DNA of 64,000 nucleotides, taken from the NCBI GenBank assembly GCA_965232515.1, contig CBDDPY010000002.1, positions 6,711,573 to 6,775,572 on the forward strand, given 5' to 3'. Shown in pieces: positions 3,178 to 54,104 of this stretch (its first letter is position 1; every line of letters starts with the position of its first letter). The position numbers and the translations under genes were made by a program. Source of the stretch: Alphaproteobacteria bacterium. GTDB taxonomy: Bacteria > Pseudomonadota > Alphaproteobacteria > GCA-2731375. Below the pieces are notes generated by a model. That model was not told where the DNA came from and did not search any database. It worked only from the letters and a program-made list of their open reading frames with translations.

Positions 3178-4304
3178 TGGAACGGATCGATCTCGATGGT
3201 CTCCAGAGAGGGGCGCGGGTTGTCGTGGCCATGTCCGGCGGCGTCGACTCGTCGGTCTGCGCCGCGCTTTGCCATGAGGCCGGCTATGACGTCATCGGCA
3301 TCACGCTGCAGCTCTACGACCATGGCCAGGCGGCGCGGCGCCCCGGCGCCTGCTGCGCCGGCGTCGACATCCATGACGCCAAGCGGGTGGCCGAGCGCCT
3401 CGGCATTGCCCACTATGTGCTCGACTACGAGGATCGTTTTCGCCAGTCGGTGATGGACGATTTTGCCGACAGCTATCTTGCCGGCGAGACGCCGGTGCCT
3501 TGCATCCGCTGCAATCAGACCGTGAAGTTCCGGGATCTCCTGGGCACCGCCCGCGAGCTTGGCGCCGAAGCGCTGGTCACCGGCCACTATGTCCGCCGGG
3601 TGGCGGGCGAGGCCGGCCCCGAACTGCACCGCGCCGTCGATGCGGCGAAGGACCAGAGCTATTTCCTGTTCGCCACGACCGCGGCCGAGCTTGATTTCCT
3701 GCGCTTGCCCCTGGGCGAAATCGCCGACAAGGCGGCGACCCGGGCGGTCGCCCATCGCCATGGCCTGCCGGTGGCCGAGAAGGCGGACAGCCAGGACATC
3801 TGCTTCGTACCGCAGGGCCGCTATGCCGAGGTGATCGAGCGCCTGCGTCCGGGCGCGGCCGATCCCGGCGAGATCGTCGACCAGGCGGGCCGGGTGCTCG
3901 GCCGGCATGACGGTATCATCCATTTCACCATCGGCCAGCGCCGCGGCCTGGGCCTCAGCATGCCCGAACCGCTCTACGTGCTGCGGCTGGAGCCCGAAAC
4001 CCGGCGTGTCGTGGTCGGCCCACGGGCGGCATTGCTGGAGCGGCGCATCGTCCTGAAGGACGTGAACTGGCTGGATAGCGCGGCCGTGCCGCCGGCCGGC
4101 CGGGCTGTCGGCGCCCGCATCCGCTCGACCCGGCCGCCGGTCCCGGCCACCGTCTTCGCGGCGCTGGATGGGCATATCGAGGTCAGCCTGCACGAGCCTG
4201 AAGCCGGTGTGGCGCCCGGTCAGGCCTGCGTGCTCTACGACGGCAGCCGGGTTTTGGGCGGCGGCTGGATCGCCCGCGCCGAGGGCAACCGCGCCGCCGC
4301 TTGA
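3178..4304 (+). CDS. mnmA: tRNA-specific 2-thiouridylase MnmA
   Basis: [15 protein letters not shown]-loop, then DYEDRF and CIRCN motifs. 375 aa starting at MERIDLDG. Confidence 0.9.
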
Positions 4305-4367
4305 CAGCAAGGCCGCTTCGTCCCTATATCCACCGCCTGCGGCAGAGGTAGCGAGCCGCGTGCGTGT

Positions 4368-4444
4368 GGCGGGGTAGCTCAGTTGGTTAGAGCAGCGGAA
4401 TCATAATCCGCGTGTCGGGGGTTCAAGTCCCTCCCCCGCTACCA
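4368..4444 (+). tRNA. tRNA-Met (anticodon CAT); tRNA-Ile2(LAU) not excluded
   Basis: Cloverleaf read by hand. Acceptor stem GGCGGGG/CCCCGCU, D-arm GCTC-AGTTGGTTA-GAGC, anticodon stem GCGGA/TCCGC with loop AUCAUAA, T-arm GGGGG-TTCAAGT-CCCTC, A73 and encoded CCA. Confidence 0.85.
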
Positions 4445-4568
4445 AATTTCCTGAATTAGAACAATCTGCTAGAAGTCCCGCTTGCACCTTGCGTGGTGAA
4501 GATGCAGCGCTGTGCCGGGGGCATTGAGCGGGAACCAAGAGGCGTGGAGCCGTGGCACGGACGCAATC

Positions 4569-4931
4569 ATGATCCGGTCGGGTGCGGGGATTGCCGTCGT
4601 TCTGATGCTCTTGCTGTCGGCCGATGGCAAGGTCGGCGCCTCGGCCCCGCGATTCTCCAACCTGCAGGTCTTGCCGGAAGACGCGACGCCGGCCGAGGTG
4701 TTCCAGGTCATGAAGCTGATGACCCGCGCGCTCGGGACCGAGTGCCGTGTCTGTCACCGCACCGGCGCGCGCGATTTTGCCGCGGACGCGGAGCCCCTCA
4801 AGGTCACGACGCGCGGCATGATGTGGCTGGAGTCGACGGTTCGCGGCGGCATTGACTGGCGCGAACCGCCCGCCGACCTGTGTGTCGACTGCCATCGAGG
4901 TCGGCTGCGGCCGCCGCCCGGCGGCGGTTGA
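4569..4931 (+). CDS. Small secreted dihaem c-type cytochrome (photosynthetic-reaction-centre cytochrome c subunit-like domain)
   Basis: Signal peptide MIRSGAGIAVVLMLLL. Motif FSNLQVLP...LGTECRVCH and a second CVDCH. Confidence 0.6.
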   Translation: MIRSGAGIAVVLMLLLSADGKVGASAPRFSNLQVLPEDATPAEVFQVMKLMTRALGTECRVCHRTGARDFAADAEPLKVTTRGMMWLESTVRGGIDWREPPADLCVDCHRGRLRPPPGGG

Positions 4932-5032
4932 GCGGTCGGCCGCAAAGGCGAGGCCGCGTATTCTCGTAATTTCGCGAAAGGGCTATGATCGGGGACGGTT
5001 GACAATGGTCGAACCGCCGGAGAAGCGAAACA

Positions 5033-8000
5033 TTGTCTCGCGCGCGACTGGCCCCGGTGCTGCTGCTTCTTGCGCTCTTTTCGTCGAGCCACGAGGCGCG
5101 GACGGCCGACACGCAGGATGGATACGCAGGCTCCAAGGCCTGCGAAGGCTGCCACACCTACATTTACAACCAGTGGCGGGGCACACGGCATAGCTTCTCC
5201 GTCAAGACGCCGGCCGAGGCGCGATCCGCCGGTTTCCCGTTGCCCCGGCCACGCCAAGGCGGCGGCGAGCTAACGATCCGGTCGTGGGACGACGTCGCTT
5301 ACGTCATCGGCGGGCGGCAACGTATCGCCTATGCGGATGCCGCGGGTCGCGTTCAGGACACCAGCTATCACCATCGGACCGGGGGTTGGGATGCGTTTCC
5401 AACCAAGCCCATGTCCGTGTGCGGCCCGTGCCACTACACCGGCTTCGGCGTGGGCCCCGAACATTCGGACAATCCGGTGCTGCCCGGCCGCTGGGTCGAG
5501 CGAAACATCGGCTGCGAAGCCTGCCACGGACCGGGCGCGCGCCACGTCGAGAGCCTGGAGAAGGCGGACATCCAGGCCGACCCGTCGTCACGCGTCTGCG
5601 GTCAATGCCACACGGCGGTGGGCAAGGTCCTGCCCAAGGGCGAGCTGCATGCGACCCACGATCTGGTGCAGGGCTGGAACCAGGACCCGCACGTCACCGG
5701 CGTCCGCTGGAATTCCGACAACGCCTTCTGCGCGCGCTGTCACGCGCCCTATCAGGGCCACATTCCGGAGGCTGGCGAGGGTGCGGCGCGTCGGGTCTTT
5801 TCCGAGACGAAGCGGAACATCACCTGCATCGGCTGTCACAATCCGCATCAACTGACCAATGCGAACTATGGGCCTGACAACGTCTTGCTGACGCCGCCGC
5901 TGCCAATCCCGTGGCATACCCACGAAGGCCATGATGCGGACTTTACGACCACCGACTACAAGGCCTGGGACAGCACCGATGAGGTCTGCGAACGCTGCCA
6001 CCGGGGGGCGGATCGGGTCGATCTGGATCACGCCAACGCGACGTGCCAGGACTGCCACAATCAGTTCAACCGCAACCATGGACGCGAGTCCCGACGGCTC
6101 CACGACGCCAACCACCCCGCGTTGAGCTGCCGTGGCTGCCATGAGGATGCCGACCACTTAATGGCGGTGCTTTACCGGGATCCCGACTTCCTGGCGCCAA
6201 AGCACATCCACAACCTGAGGACATTGCCGGCGCGGGCGCGGACGAAGTATGGCTTCCGCTACGCGGAGCTGATCCGGCCAGGCGCGCTGGCAACGAACGT
6301 CTCGATCCAGGAAACAGCGGCCGCGGTCGCAGAGCAGAACCCGAACGGCGATTTGCCGAACCAGCCAACCGTCATTCGGCAGACCGGATCTGCTCACCAC
6401 GAGGCGCTGCGCGAACTGCTGTCAGCGCCGGTCCACCGCCGCCTCGCCGGGGACGAGACCGTGTCGGCGAAGCAACGGGCTCTATCCGAGGCGCCCGACT
6501 CTGTCGGTCGCTATCTCGACCTGGCTGATGTCTACGCGGGGCAGGGTGAATTCTCGGCGGCACGGGAGATTATCGCGCACGGGCTGGCGCTCGACGCGAG
6601 CCGGCTCCTGCTGGAGCTGCCCTTCGGCCGAGACGCGGACAGGTCCGACATGGGCGAGACGGCCGAGGCCAGGGCTCGCACATTATTGCCGCCGTCCGCG
6701 TTGCCGGGCGAGGAGGCCCTTCGAGCTTGGCTTCAGGGCTATCTGGAAATGACCGAAGGACGCTTCGCGGACGCCGCCCGGACGTTGGCGTCCGTGCAAG
6801 CGGGTTCGACCGAGCGCGTGTCGTTGCGATTTCATCTGGCGCTGGCCGAGTTGGGGCAAGGCCGCTATCGCGAGGCGCTCGTGGCAATCAAGGCGAACCT
6901 TCGTGCGAACCCTGAGCACCGGGCATCGAAAGTCGGGCTCGGATTCGTGCACCTCGCTCGGCGCCGATCCAAGCCCGCGATCGAGGCGCTGACGCGGGCG
7001 ATCGCCGACCATCCCGGTGACGCCGCGGCGCTCTATATTCTGGGGCGCGCTTATCTGACTGGCCGGGATATGGCCAACGCCGTTCAGGCCTATCGGGCCG
7101 CGGTCGATGCCGATCCCAATTTTCTCTTGGCCCGGTTCGACATGGCGCGGGCCTATGGCTTCGGCGGACGACCCGATGCGGCGACGCGCGTTTATCGAGA
7201 AATCGTCCGCCGCCAGCCTGGTCTGTTTCAGGCCCGGTTCGAGCTTGCCAATGTCTTGAAGCTGCTGAGCGACAGGCTGGCCTATCAGCTGCAGTCCGCG
7301 CGCGAGACCAGCCCGCCCACGGACATCAGCGTCGCGCGCTGGCGGGACCGCCTGTCCGGTTGGGAGCGGGAAGTCGAGAAGTTCCGGGATCTGGCGCTCT
7401 CCGAGCTGGCGATCGCGGCCAGTGTCAGACCCTCGGCGATCGAGGTGATCCGGCAGGTGGCCGAGATCTACCGGCAGTCTGGGCGCCTGTCCGAGGCCGA
7501 GCGGTTCTACCGGTGGCTGGCACGCCGCCAGCCCGAATGGTGGCTCTACCGGTATCGGCTCGGTGTCGTTCAAATCAGGCAGGGCCGCGACGCCGAGGCG
7601 ATCGAGACGCTGACACGGGCGCTGACGATGGCGCCGACGGACGGTGACACCTTTCTTGCGCTCGGCCTGGCGCAGATCCGCGCCGGCCGACTTGACGCCG
7701 CCATCGACACCTTCGAGCGCGGCAGGATCTACGAACCGTTCAATCCGGCTCTCTACACCAATCTGGGCGCGGCATATGCACGCCGCGGCAATCTCGAACA
7801 CGCGAGCGCCGCGCTCGAACGTTCGCTGGAGCTCGCCAGCTTTCCGCTGCCGCGTGTGCACCTGACACATACGAATCTCGCCATCGTGCGTATCAGGCAG
7901 GGCCGCCCCGAGGCTGCGGCTCAGTCGCTGAGACGCGCCCTGCACAGTTTTTCGCAGTACGCCTATGCCCGCGAGCTGCTCGACAGGCTGAATGCGGGTG

Positions 8001-8098
8001 AGCATCTGCACGAAGCTGACTCGCCGCCCGACGTCGTCTTCAACGATCTGCTCGAGCGCTTCGGCGAGGTCACGACGGTCGCGTTCGCCAATGACTAG
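5033..8098 (+). CDS. Nine-haem c-type cytochrome fused to a C-terminal TPR-repeat domain
   Basis: TTG start with GGAGA RBS and a signal peptide. Nine CxxCH motifs in the first roughly 370 aa: CEGCH, CGPCH, CEACH, CGQCH, CARCH, CIGCH, CERCH, CQDCH, CRGCH. Residues roughly 480-1000 are TPR-like A/L/R-rich helical repeats. Confidence 0.7.
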   Translation: MSRARLAPVLLLLALFSSSHEARTADTQDGYAGSKACEGCHTYIYNQWRGTRHSFSVKTPAEARSAGFPLPRPRQGGGELTIRSWDDVAYVIGGRQRIAYADAAGRVQDTSYHHRTGGWDAFPTKPMSVCGPCHYTGFGVGPEHSDNPVLPGRWVERNIGCEACHGPGARHVESLEKADIQADPSSRVCGQCHTAVGKVLPKGELHATHDLVQGWNQDPHVTGVRWNSDNAFCARCHAPYQGHIPEAGEGAARRVFSETKRNITCIGCHNPHQLTNANYGPDNVLLTPPLPIPWHTHEGHDADFTTTDYKAWDSTDEVCERCHRGADRVDLDHANATCQDCHNQFNRNHGRESRRLHDANHPALSCRGCHEDADHLMAVLYRDPDFLAPKHIHNLRTLPARARTKYGFRYAELIRPGALATNVSIQETAAAVAEQNPNGDLPNQPTVIRQTGSAHHEALRELLSAPVHRRLAGDETVSAKQRALSEAPDSVGRYLDLADVYAGQGEFSAAREIIAHGLALDASRLLLELPFGRDADRSDMGETAEARARTLLPPSALPGEEALRAWLQGYLEMTEGRFADAARTLASVQAGSTERVSLRFHLALAELGQGRYREALVAIKANLRANPEHRASKVGLGFVHLARRRSKPAIEALTRAIADHPGDAAALYILGRAYLTGRDMANAVQAYRAAVDADPNFLLARFDMARAYGFGGRPDAATRVYREIVRRQPGLFQARFELANVLKLLSDRLAYQLQSARETSPPTDISVARWRDRLSGWEREVEKFRDLALSELAIAASVRPSAIEVIRQVAEIYRQSGRLSEAERFYRWLARRQPEWWLYRYRLGVVQIRQGRDAEAIETLTRALTMAPTDGDTFLALGLAQIRAGRLDAAIDTFERGRIYEPFNPALYTNLGAAYARRGNLEHASAALERSLELASFPLPRVHLTHTNLAIVRIRQGRPEAAAQSLRRALHSFSQYAYARELLDRLNAGEHLHEADSPPDVVFNDLLERFGEVTTVAFAND

Positions 8099-9470
8099 TC
8101 GGGTGTTAGGCGTCGTCGCCGGGCTGTTGGGCCTGCTGGCCATTGTTGAAGGCGCGATGCTGTGGCAGCTGCATCAAGAACACGCCACGGCCAGTATCGA
8201 ACTTCGCGCCAGCAATGCCGGCCTGGAACTCGGTCCGGAGCATGGACGGGTCTTTGTTCATCCGGCGGAGCGGACCGACCAACTCGTCGCCGAGGGCGCC
8301 CTTGAAGAGGAAATCGCGGTTGCGCCCGGGACCTACGACGTCCGCGTGCTGTTTACCCGCTCAAAGGACAACCAGAGCATTTGGCTCGACGACGTCGTGC
8401 TCGAGCGAGGTGCGCGGGCGACGCACACCGTCGAGTTCGGCTCCGGCGAGCTTAGCGTCGAGGCCACGGTCGGGAGCGGCGCCGGCGAGGTCGTGGTCTA
8501 TGTCTTCGAGAGTGGCGACCAGGACAGGATCATTACGTCGATGCAACCGGGCCAACCGGTTTTGATTGCCCCCGGCACATACGATGTGCGGATCGTGCTC
8601 ACCGAAGCCGCCGAGGAGCGGGCCGTCCGCTGGCGAAAGGGCGTGCCGGTTCAAACCGGACTGCAAACCAGGATCAACGTCCGCTTCCAACAGGGCGCGT
8701 TGCTCGTCGCTGCGCTGAACGGGCAGCAACCGTTGCCCGACGGCGCCGTGGAGCTGACCGTGTTCCGCGCCGGCGACGCTCAACGCGAGGTGGTCGCCTT
8801 CGGCCTCGCCGGATCGCCACTGCATCTTGCCGCCGGGCGCTACGACATCAAGGCGACGTTTTCGGCATCGAACGACAAGCCGGTCATCTGGCTCGAGGAT
8901 CTGGCGATCACGGAGGAAGAAGCGCTGGAGAAGTCCATTGCGTTTACATCCGGAACCGCCGTCGTCAGCGCGGAGATGAAGCACGGCGCGACGCTCGACG
9001 ACTTCCAGGCCTACGTTTACTACTACAGGGTCGGGGACCACCAGGAGCCGGTTGCCTATGCCCCCGCGCCCGAACCGGTGGTGCTGGCGAGCGGCCGTTA
9101 TGACGTGCGCGTCAACTTCCACCGCTCGCACGACCGGCCCGACCTTTGGATTCGGGATCTGTTCGTGCCGCCAGGCGGGCGCGTCTCACGAACCGCGGTC
9201 TTCGCATCCGGCATGCTGCTTGTGCGGGCCTACGATGCGGCCGGGATCGAACTGGTTGGCGACAACATATTCGTGCGAGTCCATGCGGCGGGCGAGGCCA
9301 GTCGGCCCATTGCGGTCGCGCGCAGCGGCGAGATTCTCGTTCTCTCCGACGGCGTCTATGACGTTGTCGCCGAGGACACCCGAAGCCCCGGAACCGAGCG
9401 CCGCATCGATCGCGTCGCTGTGACGCCGGGGAAACTGTCGGAGCACACCCTGACGTTTGGGCGGCCGTGA
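8091..9470 (+). CDS. Membrane-anchored protein with five tandem roughly 80-90-aa beta-rich repeats
   Basis: N-terminal TM helix VLGVVAGLLGLLAIVEG. The module APGTYDVRV...IWLDD/LWIRDL recurs five times. ATG overlaps the stop of the upstream cytochrome gene. Confidence 0.55.
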   Translation: MTSRVLGVVAGLLGLLAIVEGAMLWQLHQEHATASIELRASNAGLELGPEHGRVFVHPAERTDQLVAEGALEEEIAVAPGTYDVRVLFTRSKDNQSIWLDDVVLERGARATHTVEFGSGELSVEATVGSGAGEVVVYVFESGDQDRIITSMQPGQPVLIAPGTYDVRIVLTEAAEERAVRWRKGVPVQTGLQTRINVRFQQGALLVAALNGQQPLPDGAVELTVFRAGDAQREVVAFGLAGSPLHLAAGRYDIKATFSASNDKPVIWLEDLAITEEEALEKSIAFTSGTAVVSAEMKHGATLDDFQAYVYYYRVGDHQEPVAYAPAPEPVVLASGRYDVRVNFHRSHDRPDLWIRDLFVPPGGRVSRTAVFASGMLLVRAYDAAGIELVGDNIFVRVHAAGEASRPIAVARSGEILVLSDGVYDVVAEDTRSPGTERRIDRVAVTPGKLSEHTLTFGRP

Positions 9471-9650
9471 GCCCGATATCGCGCCGTCAGGTCGCGTCGG
9501 TTAAGGCGCGCAATGGCTGATCACGACGACAGGCTGGAGCGCATCCCAAGCTGCTAAATTTGCGCCGGACCGGCAAAATCACTTACCATAATGCCGGTCG
9601 ATGGTGTCCGGCCGTGTCGGACGACCTTGTCTGCTTGAGGAGGGACCACG

Positions 9651-10400
9651 ATGGGCATCCTGCAGGGCAAAGCGTTGGTGGTGCTGGGCGCGCTGGTCGC
9701 GATAGGCGTTCTGGCCAGTCCCACGACAGGCCACGCGCTGGTCGAGACAAAAAAGCAGCCGTTCGTCAAAAACTCCGCGTTCATTGACTTCAAAAAGCTC
9801 GGCACGATCAGGAAGCTCAGCCTGGAGATCCAGAGTCTGGAACGAGTCGAGTTCAAACCGTTTGACAAGCCCAAGGGAAAGCCGAAGAAGAAGGGGCCTG
9901 TCTTCAAGTTCAGCGAGCCCATCCAGGGACCGACCGGCGGGCCGGTCGTCGACATTGAGCTGGTCTCACTGTCGCTTGTCAGCACAAGTCCGGTGTTGCT
10001 GGACGGCCAGACCGGGCACCTCGTGCTAACGCATGATCCCGCCCGGTCGAGTGGCGGACCGGGCATCATCAGGTTCGACGACAAATCCAAAAAGACCGGC
10101 AAGTTCGACGCGAAGTTCGAAAAGCTCCTGAAGCTGAAGCTGAAGGACGACAAGAACCAAAAGACCAAGGTCGACAAGGGCAAGATCGGGCTGCCAGTTA
10201 AATTCGACGGCGTCGCCTTCAGACAGCAGTCGCCGATCACGGTCACTGAGGCGTTCTGTATTGGCCCTCAGGATAGTTCGATCGCCGAATTCTGCCTGCG
10301 TCCGATACCCGAACCGCCGACACTGCTGCTGCTTGGTCTGGGTCTGACCGGGCTTGTCGCGGCATTCGCATTCGGGCGGCGCCGGGAACCGGCCGCATAA
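9651..10400 (+). CDS. PEP-CTERM sorting-domain protein, lysine-rich
   Basis: Signal peptide. C-terminus PIPEPPTLLLLGLGLTGLVAAFAFGRRR, i.e. a PEP motif, a TM helix and an Arg cluster. Central K-rich low-complexity region. GAGGAGGG RBS. Confidence 0.7.
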   Translation: MGILQGKALVVLGALVAIGVLASPTTGHALVETKKQPFVKNSAFIDFKKLGTIRKLSLEIQSLERVEFKPFDKPKGKPKKKGPVFKFSEPIQGPTGGPVVDIELVSLSLVSTSPVLLDGQTGHLVLTHDPARSSGGPGIIRFDDKSKKTGKFDAKFEKLLKLKLKDDKNQKTKVDKGKIGLPVKFDGVAFRQQSPITVTEAFCIGPQDSSIAEFCLRPIPEPPTLLLLGLGLTGLVAAFAFGRRREPAA

Positions 10401-10454
10401 AGGCAGCGGACCAAACAGCATAGCCGTTCAGTCAGTCTATTGACAGCGGCGCGC

Positions 10455-10823
10455 CTACCGCGCAGCGAGTTGTTCGACGGCTTTGACGATGTCGGCGTTG
10501 GCGAAGGGTTTGGTGATGAAGAGATCGGCGCCGCAGTCGAGGGCGGTTTCGCGGTCTTCGCGCTGGCCCTTGGCGGTCAGCACCAGCACCGGCAGGGTTT
10601 CCGCCCGGCGGTCGGCGCGCAGGCGGCGCAGGACTTCATAGCCGTCCAGTTCCGGCAGCATGACGTCAAGGATCATCACGTCGGGCGTGTCCGCCAGCGC
10701 GGCGTTCAAAGCCTTGCGCCCATCGGTTTCGACCGCCACGTCGAACCCCGCCCGTTCCAACAGAAAGGTCAGGGGTTCGACGATGTTCGGCTCGTCCTCC
10801 GCAAGCAGGACGCGCTTTGTCAT
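10455..10823 (-). CDS. Single-domain response regulator (CheY-like receiver)
   Basis: MTKRVLLAEDEPNI...DVMILDVMLPELDG...LVLTAKG. Carries the phospho-acceptor Asp and the conserved T and K. Confidence 0.8.
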   Translation of the reverse strand: MTKRVLLAEDEPNIVEPLTFLLERAGFDVAVETDGRKALNAALADTPDVMILDVMLPELDGYEVLRRLRADRRAETLPVLVLTAKGQREDRETALDCGADLFITKPFANADIVKAVEQLAAR

Positions 10824-26365: not shown

Positions 26366-28423
26366 ATGACCAGTCGTCTCTGTATCGATGTTGGCGGGAC
26401 ATTCACCGATCTGTTGCTGGTCGACGACGACAGCGGTCGGCGGACGCATCTGAAGACGCCGACGACGCCGGGCGATCCGGCGGCGGGAATCCTGAGCGGT
26501 ATCGAGCAGATCACGGTCGAGGCCGGCGTCGCCGCGGCGGAGATCGGCGCGGTGCTGCACGGGTCAGGCTTGGCCGTCGACGCGGTGCGGCGGAAGACGG
26601 GCGCCAGGGTCGGCCTGCTGGTGACGCAAGGCTTCGAGCATCTGCTGCACCTGGCGCGCGCGCGGACGCCGGCGCCCATGGGCGGCTGGACGACGATGAA
26701 AAAGTCGGCGCCGCTCGCCGACATCGAATTCACGCACGGCGTGACTGAACGCATCAACGCGCGCGGCGACGTGGTGACGCCGCTCGACGAGGCCAAGGCG
26801 CGCGCCGCCGTGCGCGCGTTGTTGGACGCCGGCGCCGACTCAATCGTCGTCGCATTCCTGCACGCCCATGCCAACCCCGCGCACGAGCAGCGGGTCAAGG
26901 CCCTGGTGGCGGAAATGGCTGCCGATATGCCGGTGGCGCTGTCGTCCGAGATGTCGTCGCGGCACGGCGAGTACGAGCGCACGCTGGTCGCGGTGATGAA
27001 CGCCTATCTGCGGCCTGGCATGCAGCGCTACCTGGACGACATCGAGACGAAGCTGCGCGGCGCGGATGTGGCGGCGCCGATCAGCATGATCCGTCCGGAC
27101 GGCGGGCGCATGGCCGCGATCTATGCGACCGAGCGGCCGGCCCAGACCATGCTGTCGGGTCCCGCCGCCGCCGTGTCCGCCGCCGCCGCGGCAGCGGCGC
27201 AGGCCGGACACCAGAATGCGATCAGCTTCGACATGGGCGGCACGTCCACCGGTGTCGCGGTCATCCGCGACGGCGAAAGCCAGACTGGTTCGCACATGAC
27301 GTTCGCCGACGATGCCGTTGCCGTACCGTCAATCGACATGCGCAAGATCGGCCGGGGCGGCGGGGCGGTCGCCCATGTCCCGGTGACGGGCGCCCTGCGG
27401 GTCGGGCCCGAGGGCGCCGGCGCCGTTCCCGGCCCGGCCTGTTATGGTCGGGGCGGCGACCGGCCGACGTTGACCGATGCCAACGCCGTTCTGGGCCGCC
27501 TGCCGGGAACGCTGCTCGGCGGCCGGATGCCGCTCGACACCCGCGCCGCCGAGGAAGCGATGGGCAAGCTCGCCCGGACGCTCGGTCTCGACACCTATCA
27601 GACGGCCCTCGCCATCGTCGACGTCTGCAACGAGGATCTGGCGGGCGAGGTGCGGCTGGCCGCGGTGGCGCACGGGCTGGACACCGGCGATATGGCGATG
27701 GTCGCCGGCGGCGGCGCCGGACCGATGCATGCCGTCGCACTGGCGCGGCTGATCGGCTGTTATCCGGTTATCGTGCCGCCGACGCCCGGCCTGCTGTCGG
27801 CATGCGGCTTTCTGAACGCCGACATTCGCCATGAATGCGGTCGCGCTGTCATGCGCCTTGTCGACGAGATCGACAGCGCCCGTTTCGGTGACGTGCTCGA
27901 CCGGCTGGCGGCCGACGCCACCGCGCTGCTCGAGGCCGAGCAGGTGGAACCCGCGGCCCGGTCGCTGCGGTTCGAGGCGGACCTGCGATATCTCCGTCAA
28001 GGCAGCGAATTCACGTTCACCGTCGAGCCGGCCGGTCTGCGCAACGGCGGTCTTCAGGATCTCGCCACACGCTTCGCGGCGGCACACGAGCGGCGGCACG
28101 GCGTCAAGCTCGATCAACCGATCGAGCTGCTGGCGATCCGCGCCATTGGCCTAGGTCGGACGGCGCAGCCGTCTGATGCGACCGTCGAGGCGGGTGGACC
28201 TGACGCCTCGGCCGCCATTGTCGACCAGCGCCAGGTCTATTTCGATCAGGGGTTTGTCGCGACTGACATCTACGACCGGGCTTTGCTGCGCGCGGGCAAC
28301 CGCCTGATCGGACCGGCGATCGTCGAGCAGGCGGACGCGACCACGGTCGTGCATCCGGGGCATGTCGCCGAGGTCGATGCGCACGGCAACATGCTCATCC
28401 GGCCCGAGGCCGTTCGGCACTAG
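26366..28423 (+). CDS. hyuA: Hydantoinase/oxoprolinase A subunit (N-methylhydantoinase A-like)
   Basis: LCIDVGGTFTDLLLVD N-terminal motif. 685 aa, the size of the HyuA family. Confidence 0.85.
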   Translation: MTSRLCIDVGGTFTDLLLVDDDSGRRTHLKTPTTPGDPAAGILSGIEQITVEAGVAAAEIGAVLHGSGLAVDAVRRKTGARVGLLVTQGFEHLLHLARARTPAPMGGWTTMKKSAPLADIEFTHGVTERINARGDVVTPLDEAKARAAVRALLDAGADSIVVAFLHAHANPAHEQRVKALVAEMAADMPVALSSEMSSRHGEYERTLVAVMNAYLRPGMQRYLDDIETKLRGADVAAPISMIRPDGGRMAAIYATERPAQTMLSGPAAAVSAAAAAAAQAGHQNAISFDMGGTSTGVAVIRDGESQTGSHMTFADDAVAVPSIDMRKIGRGGGAVAHVPVTGALRVGPEGAGAVPGPACYGRGGDRPTLTDANAVLGRLPGTLLGGRMPLDTRAAEEAMGKLARTLGLDTYQTALAIVDVCNEDLAGEVRLAAVAHGLDTGDMAMVAGGGAGPMHAVALARLIGCYPVIVPPTPGLLSACGFLNADIRHECGRAVMRLVDEIDSARFGDVLDRLAADATALLEAEQVEPAARSLRFEADLRYLRQGSEFTFTVEPAGLRNGGLQDLATRFAAAHERRHGVKLDQPIELLAIRAIGLGRTAQPSDATVEAGGPDASAAIVDQRQVYFDQGFVATDIYDRALLRAGNRLIGPAIVEQADATTVVHPGHVAEVDAHGNMLIRPEAVRH

Positions 28424-28436
28424 GGGCGCGGGCGCA

Positions 28437-30509
28437 ATGACAGAACAGAACACGCCCGCCCATCCGGTCTCGCTCGACGACCTGCTGCGGTCGAACAAGG
28501 ATCAGTTCGACAAGGTCTTCGACACCCAGATGCGCCGCATCGACGTCGGCGGTACGACCTATACGCCGGCCGCCGAAGAGGCGCCGCCGCCCAAGGTGGT
28601 CGTTGCGGCCGAACAGGAAAGCGAAATGCCGTCGGCGTCGCCGTCCGGCCAGGAACCGGTGCTGGCGCTCGCCGCGCCGGAGACGCTCACGCGCGTCGAG
28701 GCCCGGCCGAGCGCGGACGTGGATCCGGAGCGCGCGCCGGACGCGATCTCGCTTGATCTGGTCGAGGGCGCGTTGCGGAACGCCCGGCGCGAGATGGACG
28801 CCGCTCTGCGGTGGCAGGCCATCTCGCCGGCGATCCGCGACCAGCATGACGCGTTTCCGACGCTTGCCGACGCCGAGGGCCGAATGCTCGCCGGTTCGTT
28901 CGGCGGCTTTCTGCGGGACATGTTGCAGCAGCAGATGCCGGATCTGCAGCCGGGCGACGTGATCCTGCAGAGCGACCCCTACCGCAGCGACGGCGCGGTT
29001 GGCCACGTGAACGACTGGCTGGTGCTGATGCCGGTGTTCTACGGTGACGTGCCGGTCGGGTTCAGCGCCATGTGCGGCCACATGGTCGACGTCGGCGGGC
29101 CGGTGCCCGGCAGCCTGCCGACCTCGGCGACCTCGATCTTCGGCGAAGGCATCCGCATCCCGCCGATCAAGCTCTACGCGGGCGGTGAGCCGAACCGGGC
29201 CGTGCTCGACCTGTTATGGAATAACACCCGGACGCCCGACCTGAACTACGCCGATCTGATGGCGCTGGTTGCCGCCTGCCGGGTCGGCGAGCGGCGCCTG
29301 ATCGAGATCTGCGACCGCTTCGGCGTGGCGCCTTTCCGGCGCGCCGGCGAGGCGCTGCGCGAACGCACGAAACGCACCCTGCGGCGCCTGATCGTCCAAT
29401 ATCTGCCCGAGGAACCGCAGTCGTTCGAGGACCATATCGACAGCGACGGACGGGGGAACGGGCCGTTCAAGATCAAGCTGACGGTCTGGCGCGAGGGCGA
29501 GCAGGCCTTCTTCGACTGGACCGGAACGGCCGCCCAGGCGCCGGGGCCGGTCAACTTCTATCTGCATGACGGTCTGTTTAAATCCGTCGTCGGCGCCTAT
29601 TTGAGTCGGGCGGTCGATCCGCGTATCCAGCTCAACGATGCATTCTACGATCTGATCCACGTTACCCTGCCGAAGGGCTCGTTGCTGCGCCCGACATTTC
29701 CAGCAGCGCTTGGCGGACGCGCGCATGCCATGTCGCGGCAGTTCGACGTGCTGACGGGCGCCATGAGCCGCACCATGCCCCGCGAGGCGACGGCGGCCGG
29801 CTGCGGCTCCAGCCCGCAATTCCGCTTCGCCGGGATCGATCGCGACGGTCGACCCTTCCAGTTCGCGGATCACGTTTTCGGCGGCATTCCCGGCCGGCCC
29901 GTCGCCGACGGCATCGACGGCCATGCCTGGCAACCGATGGCCGAGACCGCGCCCGTCGAAACTCTCGAAAGCTGCTATCCTGTCATCGTCGAGCGTTGCG
30001 GCGCGGTGCCGGACTCCGGCGGGGTTGGACAGCATCGCGGCGGCAACGGGGTGGAGAAGGTCTACCTGCTGCTCGAGACGGGGGAGGTGTCAATTCACGA
30101 CGATCGCGAGCGCACGCAGCCCTGGGGTATTGGGGGCGGCGGGCCGGGCGCCAGTTCGGCGAAGTGGATCGAGCGGAAGGACGGCGAGCGCGCGCCGCTG
30201 CCGTCGAAGATTGATCGTCTCAAGGTGCGCAACGGCGACCGCATTATCTTCCGCACCGCCGCCGGCGGCGGCTGGGGCGATCCGCTGGAGCGCGATCCGG
30301 TTCGGGTCCGTAAAGATGTGGTCCGCGGCCTCGCGACCGCCGAAGCGACGCGGGCGGCCTACGGCGTCGTGCTGACAGAGGACGGCCTTGAGATTGACAT
30401 CGGCGCGACCGAGGAGTTGCGAGACGAAAAGCGCCGGAACCGGCGACCGACGTCGGCATTCGACTTCGGTGAGCGGCGGCGCGACAATGGCGACACGGAT
30501 ACGAGTTGA
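28437..30509 (+). CDS. hyuB: Hydantoinase B/oxoprolinase subunit (N-methylhydantoinase B-like) with roughly 95-aa Pro/Ala-rich N-terminal extension
   Basis: The conserved core begins near DAISLDLVEGALRNARREMD. The true start may be internal. Confidence 0.8.
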   Translation: MTEQNTPAHPVSLDDLLRSNKDQFDKVFDTQMRRIDVGGTTYTPAAEEAPPPKVVVAAEQESEMPSASPSGQEPVLALAAPETLTRVEARPSADVDPERAPDAISLDLVEGALRNARREMDAALRWQAISPAIRDQHDAFPTLADAEGRMLAGSFGGFLRDMLQQQMPDLQPGDVILQSDPYRSDGAVGHVNDWLVLMPVFYGDVPVGFSAMCGHMVDVGGPVPGSLPTSATSIFGEGIRIPPIKLYAGGEPNRAVLDLLWNNTRTPDLNYADLMALVAACRVGERRLIEICDRFGVAPFRRAGEALRERTKRTLRRLIVQYLPEEPQSFEDHIDSDGRGNGPFKIKLTVWREGEQAFFDWTGTAAQAPGPVNFYLHDGLFKSVVGAYLSRAVDPRIQLNDAFYDLIHVTLPKGSLLRPTFPAALGGRAHAMSRQFDVLTGAMSRTMPREATAAGCGSSPQFRFAGIDRDGRPFQFADHVFGGIPGRPVADGIDGHAWQPMAETAPVETLESCYPVIVERCGAVPDSGGVGQHRGGNGVEKVYLLLETGEVSIHDDRERTQPWGIGGGGPGASSAKWIERKDGERAPLPSKIDRLKVRNGDRIIFRTAAGGGWGDPLERDPVRVRKDVVRGLATAEATRAAYGVVLTEDGLEIDIGATEELRDEKRRNRRPTSAFDFGERRRDNGDTDTS

Positions 30510-30592: not shown

Positions 30593-33409
30593 ATGTACGA
30601 GATCGGAATATCACTGCTGATTGCGGCGATCGTTGTTATCGCGATCGTCTACATCATCTCCATCTGGATCTATAAACGCGCGCCGGCCAACATGGGCTTC
30701 ATTCGGACCGGCTTCCTCGGCACCAAAGTGTGTCTCGGCCGCGGCGCCATCGTGCTGCCGGTGTTCCATGAGGTCACCTGGATCTCGCTCGAGACCATCA
30801 AGCTGATCGTCAGCCGCTCGCGCGACCAGGCGATCCTGACCTCGGACAAGATCCGCGTCGATGTCGTCGCCGAGCTCTATGCCCATGTCGGCCATAGCGA
30901 GGACGCGCTGCTGACCGCCAGCCGCAGCCTGGGCGAGAAGACCTTCGATCCGGAAAAGGTCCGCAACCTGCTGGAAGCGAAGGTGGTGAGCGCGCTGCGC
31001 AGCTACGCGGCGACGAAGACGTTGACCGAGCTGCACGAGAACCGCGATGCCTTCGCGCAGGAGATCAAGGCGAATGTGCTGGAGAGCTTCAGCGCCAACG
31101 GTCTCATGCTCGAAGAGGTCACGATCGTGACCATGGAGCAGTCGTCGAAGGAATACTTCAAGACCGACAACGTGTTCGACGCCGAGGGCCTGAAGATCAT
31201 CACCGAGATCACCTCGGACGCCCGCCGGCGCGTGCATGACACCGAGAAAAAGACCACGGTCGCTATCCGCCAGAAGGATCTGGACACGCAGCTCGAGCTG
31301 CTCGAGATCGAGCGGCAGGAGGCCTTCGCGCGCGCCGATCAGGACAAGTCTGTCGCCAACGAGCAGGCGCTGCAGCTCGGCCAGAAGCAGATCTACGTGC
31401 TGGACCAGCGCATGGCCGTCGAAGAAAAGGAGATCGAGAACGACAAGAACCTCGAACGGCTGCGCACGGAACGCGATGTCGCGGTCACCGAGGAGGCGAA
31501 GAAGCGCGAGATCGCCGAGATCCAGAAGGCCCTGGCGTTGGAGCAGGAGCGGCGCGACCGCGAGATCGCCATCATCGCCAAGGCCGAGCAGGAGGAGCTC
31601 GCCAATATCGGCCGCAATCTGTCGCTGGAGAAGGCCGAGAAGGATCGCGAAATCGAGCTGATCGGGAAGGCGAAGCAGGAGGAACTGGCCGAGATCCAGC
31701 GCGGGCTCGAGCGCGAGCGTGCCGAGAAGGACCGCGAGATCGAGCTGACTGAGAAGGAGCGCGAGCGGCAACAGGCCGAGATCCAGCGCGTCACCGCCGT
31801 GACCGAGGATGAAGAAGTCGCGCGCGACAAGCGGCACCAGGTCGCCGAAGCGACAGCGCTCGCCATGCGCAAGCGCAGCCTCGAAACCAAGCTCGCCATG
31901 CTGAACATCGACAAGGACGAGGCCGTGGCGGCCGCCGTGCAGCAGCAGGAAGTCTCTCACGAGAAGGCCCGCGTGCTGAGCGAGCAGCAGCGTTTCGTGC
32001 TGGAGCAGCGCTGGCAGGTCGAGAAGGAGGAGATCGAGAAAGCGCTGGCGCTGGAGAAGGCGCAGATCAACAAGGAAGCCGCGATCCTCGAGGAGTCGAA
32101 AGTGCGCGAGGCGGCCGAGATCCGTCGCACGCTCGCCCGCGAGCAGGAGGAGCGGGACCGCGAGATCGCGCTCGTGGCCAAGGCCGAGGAGCTGGAGCGC
32201 GCGGAGATCCGCCGGGCGCTGGCCCGCGAGCAGGAGGAGCGCGACAGCCAAGTGGCGCTGGTCGCCAAGGATGGCGAGGTCCGCCGGGCCGAGGTGCAGC
32301 AGACGCTGCAGGTCGAGATGGCCGAGCGCGACCGCGAGATTTCGCTGATCTCCAAGGAACAGGAGCGCGAAAAGGTGGATATCCAGCGCTTCCTGGCGCG
32401 CGAGGTCGAGGAGCGCAACCGCGAGATCGTGCTGGTCGACAAGACCCGCGAGCTGGAGGAGGTCGAGGCGAAGCGGCTGCAAACCACGGCCGAGAAGGAG
32501 CGGGCCGAGCATGCGGTCCAATCGGTGCGCCAGCGGGCCGATGCCGAGCTGTCGAAGGAGATCGATTTGATCTCGGCGGCGAAGCTGGCCGAGAGCCGGC
32601 GGATCGACGAGGAAAACAAGGCTCAGATTACGCGCATGCACATGCTGACTCAGTCGGAGGCCCGCAAGGCCGCGGCGCAGCAGGAATCGGAGGCGACGCT
32701 GATTCGGGCGCGGGCCACCAGCGAGGCTCAGAAGATCACCGCCGACGGCATCGAGCGCGAGGCCGGCGCCAAGGGCCGCGCCGAAGCGGAGATCGAGGCG
32801 CTCAAGGCCGACAACGCCAAGCGCATGCTGGAGGCCGAGGCCAGCGGCATCGAGGCCAAGGCCGACGCCTTGAAGAAGTACAACGACGCCGCGACATTCC
32901 TGGAGCTCGCGAAGCTGCACATCGAGGCCGAGCGCGATATCCATATCGATCAGGCCAAGGCGATGGGCAACGCGTTGTCGGGCGCGCAGATCCGCATGTA
33001 TGGCGGCGGCGACGGCACGGTCGACACCATTCGCGGCATGTTCACCTCCGGCTTCGGCCTGGGCGAGGCGCTGGAAGGCGTGGCCCAGTCGTTGCCCGAG
33101 GGCATTCGCGAGCGCTTTGCCGAGAACGGCATCCGCGGCCTGTTCGGTCGTCCCGGCGGCAACGGCGAGTTCCGCCAGTCGGTCGCGCGGCTGGCCGAGC
33201 TGGTGCAGAGCAACATGCGCTCGCGCAAGGCGCGCGAGGTGCCGTTCAAGGACGCCATGGCGACGCTGCAGGCGCAGGTCGGCGACGACGCGGCGGCGGG
33301 CCGCGCGCTGACGGTGTTGAACGAGCTCAACGCCAACGGCACCTTCGACGAGGTGCCGTTCGAGAGCGTCTGGTCGCTTCTGCAGGCGACGATGAAGGCG
33401 GCGGATTGA
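30593..33409 (+). CDS. Flotillin/SPFH (band-7, YqiK-like) protein with expanded coiled-coil tandem repeats
   Basis: N-terminal TM helix plus an SPFH domain (GFIRTGFLG...VVAELYAHV). About eight 25-30-aa repeats of the form E(K/R)DREI-L(I/V)-KA-QEELAEIQR-L. Confidence 0.75.
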   Translation: MYEIGISLLIAAIVVIAIVYIISIWIYKRAPANMGFIRTGFLGTKVCLGRGAIVLPVFHEVTWISLETIKLIVSRSRDQAILTSDKIRVDVVAELYAHVGHSEDALLTASRSLGEKTFDPEKVRNLLEAKVVSALRSYAATKTLTELHENRDAFAQEIKANVLESFSANGLMLEEVTIVTMEQSSKEYFKTDNVFDAEGLKIITEITSDARRRVHDTEKKTTVAIRQKDLDTQLELLEIERQEAFARADQDKSVANEQALQLGQKQIYVLDQRMAVEEKEIENDKNLERLRTERDVAVTEEAKKREIAEIQKALALEQERRDREIAIIAKAEQEELANIGRNLSLEKAEKDREIELIGKAKQEELAEIQRGLERERAEKDREIELTEKERERQQAEIQRVTAVTEDEEVARDKRHQVAEATALAMRKRSLETKLAMLNIDKDEAVAAAVQQQEVSHEKARVLSEQQRFVLEQRWQVEKEEIEKALALEKAQINKEAAILEESKVREAAEIRRTLAREQEERDREIALVAKAEELERAEIRRALAREQEERDSQVALVAKDGEVRRAEVQQTLQVEMAERDREISLISKEQEREKVDIQRFLAREVEERNREIVLVDKTRELEEVEAKRLQTTAEKERAEHAVQSVRQRADAELSKEIDLISAAKLAESRRIDEENKAQITRMHMLTQSEARKAAAQQESEATLIRARATSEAQKITADGIEREAGAKGRAEAEIEALKADNAKRMLEAEASGIEAKADALKKYNDAATFLELAKLHIEAERDIHIDQAKAMGNALSGAQIRMYGGGDGTVDTIRGMFTSGFGLGEALEGVAQSLPEGIRERFAENGIRGLFGRPGGNGEFRQSVARLAELVQSNMRSRKAREVPFKDAMATLQAQVGDDAAAGRALTVLNELNANGTFDEVPFESVWSLLQATMKAAD

Positions 33410-52136: not shown

Positions 52137-52454
52137 ATGAAATTCAGGCCGTTGCACGACCGGGTCGTAGTTCGCCGCGTCGAGGAAGACGAGCGGACGG
52201 CCGGCGGCATTATCGTCCCCGACACCGCAAAAGAAAAGCCGATGCAGGGCGAGGTTGTTTCCGTCGGCCCCGGCGCCCGTAACGAGAAGGGCGAGATCGT
52301 GGCGTTGGATGTCAAGGCCGGCGACCGTGTGCTGTTCGGCAAGTGGTCGGGCACCGAGGTCAAGATGGACGGCGAAGAGCTGTTGATCATGAAGGAATCC
52401 GATGTGATGGCCATTATCGAGGTCAAGAAGGCCTCGAAGAAGAAGGCCGCCTAG
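52137..52454 (+). CDS. groES: Co-chaperonin GroES
   Basis: [14 protein letters not shown]...[13 protein letters not shown]. Confidence 0.95.

Positions 52455-54104
<1,650 letters not shown>

Follow-up and report, generated by a model that had tools for sequence, protein, structure and literature searches.

A nonahaem cytochrome c fused to a long TPR solenoid, and its overlapping partner gene, in an alphaproteobacterium

Introduction

Multihaem cytochromes drive the iron, nitrogen and sulfur cycles as well as microbial electrochemistry. To our knowledge, the understanding of these proteins comes almost wholly from a few anaerobes. In a 64 kb stretch of alphaproteobacterial DNA (hereafter the window, meaning all of its 64,000 nucleotides), one long open reading frame (ORF) appeared to join nine haem-binding CxxCH sites to a tail of tetratricopeptide repeats (TPRs). 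The questions raised by this locus were whether such a fusion is genuine and what a nine-haem protein with a TPR arm might do. No paper or curated family model was found for the nonahaem-TPR protein, and literature searches for multihaem-TPR fusions turned up no account of the family; only extracellular electron-transfer (EET) clusters that carry TPR genes separately were found (PMC10376724; Tenderiales preprint).

Results

The gene and its export signal

The ORF at 5033-8098 on the + strand was unbroken over 1021 codons, starting with TTG at 5033 and ending with TAG at 8096-8098. The following features were assigned to the gene and its 1021-aa product.

5019-5025, + strand: Shine-Dalgarno-like GGAGAAG, 7 nt upstream of the TTG, read from the sequence
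5033-5098, + strand: Sec-type signal peptide (residues 1-22, MSRARLAPVLLLLALFSSSHEA), with an n-h-c pattern and without a lipobox Cys
5108-6277, + strand: nonahaem cytochrome c domain (residues ~26-415), with nine CxxCH conserved in homologues and profile matches
6278-6385, + strand: variable, probably disordered linker (residues 416-451), with a gappy, poor alignment and pLDDT of 28-38
6386-8002, + strand: TPR-type alpha-solenoid of ~13 helical hairpins (residues ~452-990), from Pfam, AlphaFold2 and Foldseek
8027-8086, + strand: nearly invariant C-terminal tail F-V-x-N-D-L-L-E-x-F-G-E-V-T-T-V-x-F (residues ~999-1018), from 22 homologues

As read from the sequence, the TTG was the earliest start available after the preceding stop, and the GGAGAAG in front of it bore out the TTG start with a good ribosome-binding site that had been given in a preliminary description of the locus. 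The codon-position GC of the ORF (0.69/0.50/0.79) was usual for genuine genes in a window of 65% GC and thus provided a coding signal. A scan of 4300-10600 for promoters and terminators yielded none above the shuffled expectation, and a tRNA-Met was the sole match in the Rfam scan.

The signal peptide, which was judged by eye, reads MSRAR-LAPVLLLLALFSS-SHEA/RT and is plausible as a Sec type. In the homologues, the signal peptides were either type I or lipoprotein-type (LTGC, LSGC, ASSC, LTLAC). As every homologue carried one of these signals, all of them were considered to be exported. Export is needed because haem attachment by the Ccm or Ccs system takes place in the periplasm.

The haem domain

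The first Cys of the nine CxxCH motifs was located at residues 37, 130, 161, 189, 233, 265, 319, 338, and 366 (C37 to H370), and the motifs start at nt 5141, 5420, 5513, 5597, 5729, 5825, 5987, 6044, and 6128 (span 5141-6142), giving a spacing of 93-31-28-44-32-54-19-28. On six-frame translation, 12 CxxCH were counted in the 64 kb, with nine in this ORF, two in the ORF at 4569-4931, and one elsewhere. Thus, the cluster was far beyond chance. Moreover, when 22 full-length homologues were aligned, which is the set behind the conservation counts given here, all nine sites of the preliminary description proved invariant.

Seven extra His residues (H53, H171, H209, H220, H272, H333, and H393) were invariant in the 22 homologues, and H206 was conserved in 21 of them. 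Eight conserved non-motif His could serve as distal ligands to the nine haems, so that a coordination site may be left open in one of them. By counting and by homology with c554, OcwA, and MccA, this may be haem 2, and the His count would be compatible with one such haem, as in haem 2 of OcwA.

The haem-domain profile matched OcwA (6i5b) over residues 13-199 with an E-value of 1.9e-20, which covers haems 1-4, and OmhA (6qvm) over residues 221-482 with 2.6e-16, followed by MccA (4.7e-7) and cytochrome c554 (1.9e-5). A weak, insignificant stretch aligned to OcwA residues 280-391, and the NrfA matches had E-values of 0.01-0.9. Judging from these comparisons, the haem domain is distantly related to OcwA, OmhA, and cytochrome c554, with the similarity spanning the first four to six haems, and a c554-like N-terminal tetrahaem module is present by the same alignments. 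A DmsE/MtrA identity was rejected, the models scoring 43-46 bits against cut-offs of 192-325.

The TPR arm and the C-terminal tail

At residues 452-987, AlphaFold2 predicted 26 confident helices (~13 hairpins) with a pLDDT of ~90, and a long hairpin of helices is inserted in the solenoid at residues 732-798. Over residues ~560-990, TPR_16 (111.5 bits, cut-off 32.7), TPR_19 (99.1), TPR_1 (95.4), and TPR_2 (94.1) were matched in Pfam, and TPR_8 and other TPR families also exceeded their gathering cut-offs. When Foldseek was run with the full-length AlphaFold2 model, the TPR part alone was picked up, and the best matches were the OGT TPR superhelix with target-normalised TM-scores of 0.86-0.88 (1w3b: E 3.7e-15, TMt 0.86). 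The TPR fold of the preliminary description was thus confirmed by Pfam, AlphaFold2, and Foldseek, but its length of about 500 residues was slightly low, as the solenoid covers ~535.

In the C-terminal tail, L1007, E1008, F1010, G1011, E1012, T1015, and V1016 were at least 90% conserved among the 22 homologues, and residues 1001-1010 were modelled with a pLDDT of 88. The tail could sit in the TPR groove itself, which would favour a self-capped structural solenoid over an open docking site.

Several known families, namely, PrsT (PEP-CTERM/exosortase), CcmI/NrfG, PilW, MamA, and the N-terminal domains of BcsC/PgaA, have a TPR superhelix and a periplasmic location in common with the window protein; unlike it, they have no haem-binding motifs. 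CcmI/NrfG was rejected on the score of TPR_CcmH_CycH (PF23914, 36.3 bits against a cut-off of 42) and on the N-terminus, which is a haem domain without a membrane module. PrsT was rejected on TIGR02917 (137.8 bits against 312.2) and on the missing lipobox, and MamA on 95.6 bits against 200.

Conservation of the fusion

Both halves were kept in ~40 full-length homologues of ~1000 aa, with 34-67% identity and 97-100% coverage. Among 1.84 billion representatives, the full nine-haem module was seen only in ~1000-aa proteins or their fragments. The short database matches (470-750 aa) were the only point in favour of an assembly or frameshift artefact uniting two separate genes. However, the 680-aa variant, the one short form of which the locus was inspected, was a copy disrupted by an IS element, with the TPR remainder located downstream; the 473-aa match had a tail like that of this disrupted copy and was thus apparently truncated, and the 508- and 512-aa matches had fragment-like tails. 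Accordingly, all four were rejected as stand-alone haem domains. As a 7.33 Mb contig and, independently of it, Logan assemblies contain the identical 1021-aa protein, as the full-length fusions were independent of one another, and as GC3 was continuous over the haem/TPR junction, an artefact was regarded as having a negligible chance of being correct. The fusion proposed in the preliminary description therefore held in the homologue search, in which the halves were never found as separate intact genes.

The host of the window was placed by its GroEL, for which the best named matches were Alphaproteobacteria with 82-84% identity, and one homologue of the nonahaem-TPR protein (P0020) was labelled Gammaproteobacteria bacterium. 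IS insertions were found at two related loci (L003 and L091), and a split reading frame, perhaps a frameshift, was found at another (L084), which shows that some genomes can dispense with the module or are letting it decay.

The partner gene and its neighbourhood

Three genes close to the nonahaem-TPR gene were characterised in the window.

4569-4931, + strand: exported dihaem c-type cytochrome, 120 aa, with two CxxCH (CRVCH and CVDCH) and a CytoC_RC match just below the cut-off
8091-9470, + strand: partner gene, 459 aa (~460 aa in the family), whose ATG overlaps the upstream TAG (ATGACTAG)
9651-10400, + strand: Lys-rich secreted protein with a PEP-CTERM sorting signal (Pfam PEP-CTERM, 22.0 bits, cut-off 20.7)

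In the partner protein, a membrane helix at the N-terminus (residues 2-30) is followed by five beta-sandwich repeats in tandem, which are transthyretin/Ig-like, ~85 aa each, and all provided with a G-x-Y-D motif. In all of the 12 loci compared, namely, the window and 11 related loci, the partner gene overlapped or abutted the cytochrome stop codon, while the flanks differed. The partner is a family-specific protein and was obligate at the loci inspected. In a genome scan with back-translated patterns that proved common to many multihaem cytochromes (TCIGCHNPH-like and ExxIGCEACH), the matches listed were distant relatives with no orthologue of the nonahaem-TPR gene among them. These 79 more distant multihaem-cytochrome loci (L005-L083), some of which encode multihaem-TPR proteins, served as a negative control, and the partner gene was absent from all of them. 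The number of partner homologues was similar to that of the cytochrome, and many matches were on contigs of the same size. Moreover, the net charges of the TPR part (+10) and the partner ectodomain (-18) were opposite.

The product of 4569-4931 belongs to the non-photosynthetic relatives of PufC, a cytochrome of the reaction centre, with scores just or somewhat below the cut-offs (Pfam CytoC_RC, 22.0 bits against 22.4; NCBIfam c_type_nonphoto, 54.7 against 70). A dihaem cytochrome was a neighbour in 4 of the 12 loci and was the sole recurrent redox neighbour, i.e., a facultative companion; homologues adjoin the nonahaem-TPR gene at L001 (65-68% identity), L003 (divergent strand, CytoC_RC E 8e-14), and L088. 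The PEP-CTERM protein was likewise facultative, being in the same position at L001 and L002 (53-56% identity), L084 (25%), and L090, where the product ends in VPEPASLGLLL... Near the module, no porin, quinol dehydrogenase, or terminal reductase/oxidase was found in the window or the 11 related loci, and no secretion genes were linked at the 12 loci. A response regulator and an HTH regulator are located downstream in the window, and a response regulator is located near the module in L001.

Taken as a whole, the structural and genomic part of this work (a real gene, a conserved fusion, invariant haem motifs, an export signal, a TPR fold, and strict partner synteny) is held with high confidence.

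Discussion

The reading preferred here is a multihaem relay in the periplasm that is fixed in position by the TPR arm, with the beta-sandwich partner as the probable site of attachment, and a probability of roughly 45% is given to this mechanism as a whole. The genes at 5033-8098 and 8091-9470 would form a self-contained two-gene periplasmic module. The cytochrome would be exported through Sec, and nine c-type haems would presumably then be attached covalently to a compact domain of ~390 residues. Haems 1-4 of this domain are homologous to the c554-like module of OcwA and OmhA. With ~1 haem per 40 residues, the domain should act as a short multi-electron relay or store. A predicted flexible linker would connect it to the TPR superhelix of ~13 hairpins, which would serve as a docking arm and grip either the translationally coupled, membrane-anchored five-beta-sandwich partner or a client that the partner delivers. 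Docking would place the haem relay at a defined spot in the cell envelope, where it could exchange electrons with small soluble cytochromes, for example the PufC-like dihaem protein encoded next to it. The direction of electron flow and the substrate belong to the inferred part of this mechanism. Support for the docking role came from strict synteny with the downstream partner gene, the start of which overlaps the cytochrome stop codon in the window. Of the docking or assembly role in an electron-transfer chain that was put forward in the preliminary description, docking remained plausible. For the chain, no quinol dehydrogenase, porin, or terminal oxidoreductase was found near the gene in the window or the 11 related loci, and the dihaem cytochrome of 4 of the 12 loci was the only recurrent redox neighbour.

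An alternative is that the protein is primarily an enzyme, in which a five-coordinate haem 2 turns over nitrite, hydroxylamine, NO, sulfite, or peroxide, and the TPR arm and the partner arrange the enzyme in a larger assembly, in the way that hydrazine dehydrogenase is organised by Kustc1130. Kustc1130, which also speaks for the docking on the partner proposed for the relay, is an electrostatic assembly factor of the octahaem hydrazine dehydrogenase (PMC6469936; 6HIF for the enzyme with its factor) and has the same fold as the partner repeats. However, it is one soluble domain, compared with five on a membrane helix in the partner, its sequence identity to the partner is 18%, and hydrazine dehydrogenase has no TPR arm; as the beta-sandwich is a very common fold, this parallel is weak. 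Concerning the haem pocket, OcwA has two five-coordinate haems with His-His distal pockets (H281/282 and H380/381), and its haem coordination and c554-like module have been described (PMC6703420). These pairs were not clearly conserved in the window family, in which the sole His-His pair, H112/H113, was partly conserved (H113 in 16 of the 22 sequences). Moreover, no CxxCK or P460-type motif was found in the nonahaem-TPR protein, no nitrogen- or sulfur-cycle genes were located nearby, and the haem domain was modelled unreliably by AlphaFold2 (pLDDT < 50), so that the haem packing could not be read from the model. Accordingly, the enzyme was considered unlikely, although it is the best placed of the alternatives to the relay.

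Somewhat less likely still is a terminal extracellular electron-transfer reductase/oxidase on the cell surface, anchored through the envelope by the TPR arm and the beta-sandwich stalk. The nearest solved relatives, the nonahaem OcwA (Thermincola potens, 6I5B) and the undecahaem OmhA (Carboxydothermus ferrireducens, 6QVM), are cell-surface metal reductases of the NrfA/c554/MccA group. The window protein has nine CxxCH haems, as OcwA does, and has YxGSxxCxxCH...W..T.H and CExCHGPGxxH in common with both. In addition, some homologues are lipoproteins, a PEP-CTERM surface protein is adjacent at some loci, and the stalk would reach ~20 nm if the five beta-sandwiches were fully extended, as estimated from typical domain dimensions. 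However, the similarity to OcwA was limited to the c554-like N-terminal module, with no significant alignment to the NrfA-like C-terminal pentahaem module, and the C-terminal three-helix bundle of OcwA and OmhA is replaced by the 535-residue TPR solenoid. OcwA and OmhA belong to thermophilic Firmicutes, whereas the nonahaem-TPR hosts are apparently Gram-negative, and the host of the window resembles an ordinary large-genome heterotrophic alphaproteobacterium. The beta-sandwich partner is absent from OcwA systems, and its N-terminal helix anchor is typical of the inner membrane. Furthermore, beta-barrel porin or secretion genes were linked in 0 of the 12 loci, while in Mtr/Pcc porin-cytochrome conduits the porin gene is located beside the periplasmic decahaem.

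The TPR arm as a chaperone or assembly device (like CcmI, NrfG, or PrsT), or a redox sensor whose haems report the periplasmic redox state through the TPR-partner pair, is improbable, as the scores that point to it (TPR_CcmH_CycH, PrsT, and MamA) were all under curated cut-offs and reflect generic TPR similarity, the regulators seen in the window and L001 were not kept beside the module at other loci, the partner has no signalling domain, and nine haems would be excessive for a sensor.

The same overall plan is seen in the octahaem-TPR proteins of ~770 aa (e.g., Congregibacter brevis P0075 and Thiodictyon P0062), labelled in databases as 'multiheme c-type cytochrome' or 'tetratricopeptide repeat protein', in which a signal peptide and a c554-like multihaem domain are likewise followed by a TPR array. 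They were distantly homologous to the window protein across both halves, with 22-24% identity and pairwise E-values of 4e-10 to 5e-12. However, they have eight CxxCH with a different spacing (137-30-62-62-19-26-38), an arm of ~330 residues compared with ~535, and no conserved C-terminal tail. No NCBIfam model reached its cut-off for either member scanned, and no paper was found on multihaem-TPR fusions; the octahaem-TPR class thus also appears to be without a characterised member.

A more speculative extension, which we consider rather unlikely, is that the pair represents an unrecognised envelope structure of aerobic soil Proteobacteria, in which an inner-membrane stalk would carry one or more TPR-clamped multihaem units. 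Such a structure might act as a porin-independent, periplasm-spanning conduit or capacitor, or as a scaffolded open-haem enzyme similar to the hydrazine dehydrogenase-Kustc1130 assembly.

Significance

The pair is a rare module, most probably of soil bacteria. An OcwA/c554-type haem module is now found in large-genome bacteria, most probably from soil, where it carries a very long TPR arm and comes with a stalk protein of its own, and where the customary porins and quinol dehydrogenases are missing from its surroundings. Databases give the family no name other than 'tetratricopeptide repeat protein', so that metabolic surveys miss the nine haems. If the protein is a minor accessory redox protein, the value of the finding would be smaller, but still useful. 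If the pair forms a complex, it would represent a new way to position a haem wire in the cell envelope, and the organisation of multihaem proteins by non-haem domains could be studied in a system of only two genes that is open to genetic work.

The fused gene

The features of the cytochrome region were as follows:

4368–4444, forward strand, tRNA-Met (CAT), directly ahead of the dihaem cytochrome gene and the nonahaem-TPR module
4569–4931, PufC-like dihaem cytochrome, also found at the related loci L001, L003, and L088
5019–5025, GGAGAAG as read from the sequence, preceding the TTG start at 5033
5033–8098, forward strand, nonahaem-TPR ORF, TTG at 5033 to TAG at 8096–8098, 1021 aa, uninterrupted
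8091–9470, forward strand, partner gene, 459 aa, ATG at 8091 falling inside the final codons of the cytochrome ORF (ATGACTAG)
9651–10400, forward strand, Lys-rich secreted PEP-CTERM protein with an exosortase sorting signal, also found at L001, L084, and L090
10455–12375, reverse strand, stand-alone response regulator of 149 aa and HTH/ScfR-like regulator, just downstream of the module

The TTG at 5033 was the earliest start available past the upstream stop codon. The preliminary description had proposed a TTG start with a ribosome-binding site, and this was borne out by the GGAGAAG ahead of it and by the typical signal peptide that results (MSRAR, LAPVLLLLALFSS, and SHEA|RT in turn). The codon-position GC of the ORF (0.69/0.50/0.79) resembled that of other real genes in this 65% GC window. 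Translated in all six frames, the whole window contained only 12 CxxCH motifs, namely, nine in 5033–8098, two in 4569–4931, and one elsewhere; thus, the cluster of nine, which spans C37 to H370, was not a product of chance. All nine motifs were invariant in 22 aligned homologues, in agreement with the nine haem sites originally counted.

The remainder of the protein had been described as a TPR-like tail of about 500 residues. Pfam TPR families scored well above their cut-offs over residues ~560–990, AlphaFold2 modelled 26 helices over residues 452–987 (pLDDT ~90), and the top Foldseek matches were to the TPR superhelix of O-GlcNAc transferase (target-normalised TM-score of 0.86–0.88). Accordingly, the repeat solenoid stood, while its length was revised slightly upward to ~535 residues. 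The C-terminal tail, FVxNDLLExFGEVTTVxF, was nearly invariant in the homologue alignment and was modelled with high confidence as far as residue 1010; it may serve as a plug or cap for the solenoid. Both labels, multihaem cytochrome c and TPR protein, truly apply to the window protein.

Conservation of the fusion

Among 5.8 billion proteins searched were an identical 1021-aa protein on a 7.33 Mb contig and ~40 homologues of ~1000 aa with 34–67% identity over 97–100% of the query. When the haem domain alone was used in an exhaustive HMMER search of 1.84 billion cluster representatives, only 36 proteins fell below E 1e-30. The whole nine-haem module was matched only by ~1000-aa proteins or fragments, and the next tier covered only the first 170–250 residues. 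None of the short forms is a stand-alone gene: a 680-aa form was cut by an IS element, and just downstream came the remainder of its TPR arm, followed by the partner gene; a 473-aa match had a tail matching this disrupted copy and looks truncated; and the 508- and 512-aa matches had tails that read like fragments. The halves were therefore not always encoded separately, and the fusion proposed at the outset is genuine. An assembly artefact was excluded by the identical protein and the ~40 full-length fusions.

A commoner class of octahaem-TPR proteins (~770 aa) shares the overall design; thus, a multihaem-TPR fusion as such was already visible in databases. However, the octahaem class was only 22–24% identical to the window protein, differed in haem count and spacing, and had a shorter TPR arm. 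It also had no partner gene among the 79 loci listed by a scan of genome contigs, some of which encode multihaem-TPR proteins. No curated family model reached its cut-off for either class, no paper on multihaem-TPR fusions emerged from literature searches, and public records call family members only 'tetratricopeptide repeat protein'.

The partner gene

No Pfam or NCBIfam family was found for the 459-aa partner product. In its AlphaFold2 model (pLDDT 90.9), a membrane helix at the N-terminus precedes five beta-sandwich domains of ~85 residues each; these repeats were 23–32% identical to each other and had a G-x-Y-D motif in common. At each of the 12 loci (the window and 11 related loci), the cytochrome gene was directly followed by the partner gene, although the flanking genes were wholly different. 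Its homologues numbered 35 proteins (40–94% identity), about as many as in the cytochrome family, and a large share of them were on contigs of the same size as those bearing cytochrome matches. The 79 listed loci with more distant multihaem cytochromes had no partner gene.

Repeat 4 carried a strikingly conserved aromatic/His patch (residues 304–325, YVYYYRVGDHQEPVAY), in which Y308, Y310, Y312, H317, and Y323 were invariant in 30 homologues. The TPR arm might bind at this patch, or the patch could even supply a haem with an external ligand.

Some genomes carry a decaying module. The partner gene of L003 (10093–11529) and the TPR-encoding part of the L091 cytochrome gene (7346–8671) were each split by an IS element, and the L084 partner was called as two overlapping ORFs (9021–10362), which suggests a frameshift.

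The haem domain and its relatives

Among all PDB sequences, the top match was 6I5B (OcwA; E 4.9e-13 for the sequence by itself and 1.9e-20 for the family profile), followed by 6QVM (OmhA; E 2.6e-16), MccA (E 4.7e-7), cytochrome c554 (E 1.9e-5), and octahaem nitrite reductase (E 4.5e-5). The significant alignment covered haems 1–4, extending to about haem 6 for OmhA. OcwA is a nonahaem surface reductase of Thermincola potens with a c554-like N-terminal module (PMC6703420; bioRxiv 10.1101/2022.02.24.481543), and it is this module to which haems 1–4 aligned.

Seven non-motif histidines (H53, H171, H209, H220, H272, H333, and H393) were invariant in the 22-homologue alignment, H206 was kept in 21 of the 22, and no conserved Met was found there. 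With eight such conserved histidines and nine haems, eight haems could be bis-His ligated and one left open. This assignment comes from counting, since AlphaFold2 gave no usable model of the haem domain (pLDDT < 50). Haem 2 of the c554-like module is five-coordinate in c554, OcwA, and MccA.

Proposed role of the module

Both products were predicted to be exported or membrane-anchored, and the two genes are most economically read as one periplasmic module of cytochrome and partner. The haem domain would act as a multi-electron relay, which is feasible because of its haem density (~1 per 40 residues). The TPR superhelix would be the obvious docking element, and the partner the obvious client or anchor of the arm, because its start overlaps the cytochrome stop codon and the two genes are strictly co-inherited. 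The net charges (+10 for the TPR versus −18 for the partner ectodomain) and the precedent of Kustc1130, a hydrazine dehydrogenase assembly factor with a single beta-sandwich domain, are weak hints of such pairing.

An enzyme organised into a super-complex, with the putative open haem as its site, is unlikely. An OcwA-like extracellular reductase is less probable still: the protein is related to OcwA and OmhA, yet lacks the defining C-terminal architecture of both, the NrfA-like module and three-helix bundle of OcwA being undetectable. A chaperone or redox sensor is very improbable. A response regulator was near the module also in the closest relative, L001, and absent there in the other loci; the HTH/ScfR-like regulator weakly matched Peptidase_M78 (IrrE-like).

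Genomic context and host

None of the 12 loci had a porin, a NapC/CymA-type quinol dehydrogenase, or a terminal oxidoreductase linked to the module. At least four genomes kept the PEP-CTERM protein gene downstream of it. In L003, L084, L085, L087, and L091, IS elements or transposase genes lay next to the module or within it; with the upstream tRNA-Met, this suggests that the module may be a mobile or accessory islet. One cytochrome homologue was labelled Gammaproteobacteria, and two of the loci carried PSCyt2, PSD1, and DUF1501 genes, a combination typical of Planctomycetota.

Ordinary heterotrophic functions accounted for the rest of the window, with ABC transporters, hydantoinase-type enzymes, and GroES/GroEL among them; its genes included the following:

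26366–30509, forward strand, hydantoinase/oxoprolinase-type gene pair
30593–33409, forward strand, SPFH/Band 7 protein of 938 aa, its sole domain N-terminal (residues 47–180)
39517–40989, dihydropyrimidinase
52137–54104, forward strand, groES-groEL pair

The pair at 26366–30509 resembled caprolactamase CapA/CapB and acetophenone carboxylase subunits, far below equivalog cut-offs; together with the dihydropyrimidinase, it represents ordinary heterotrophic nitrogen-heterocycle metabolism. The 938-aa protein had no NCBIfam match and a long C-terminal part without annotation. A marked positive AT skew was observed across its gene.

The best named matches of the window GroEL were from Stellaceae, Algihabitans, and Rhodospirillales. 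GroEL places the host among uncultured Alphaproteobacteria and, since these named relatives were only 82–84% identical, indicates a poorly sampled lineage. A second GroEL (P0285, 85% identical) was on the same 7.33 Mb contig; thus, this genome carries two or more chaperonin copies.

The function of the module is what we infer; the nonahaem-TPR family itself is rare and uncharacterised, its fusion is real and conserved, and its partner is an obligate, five-domain protein.
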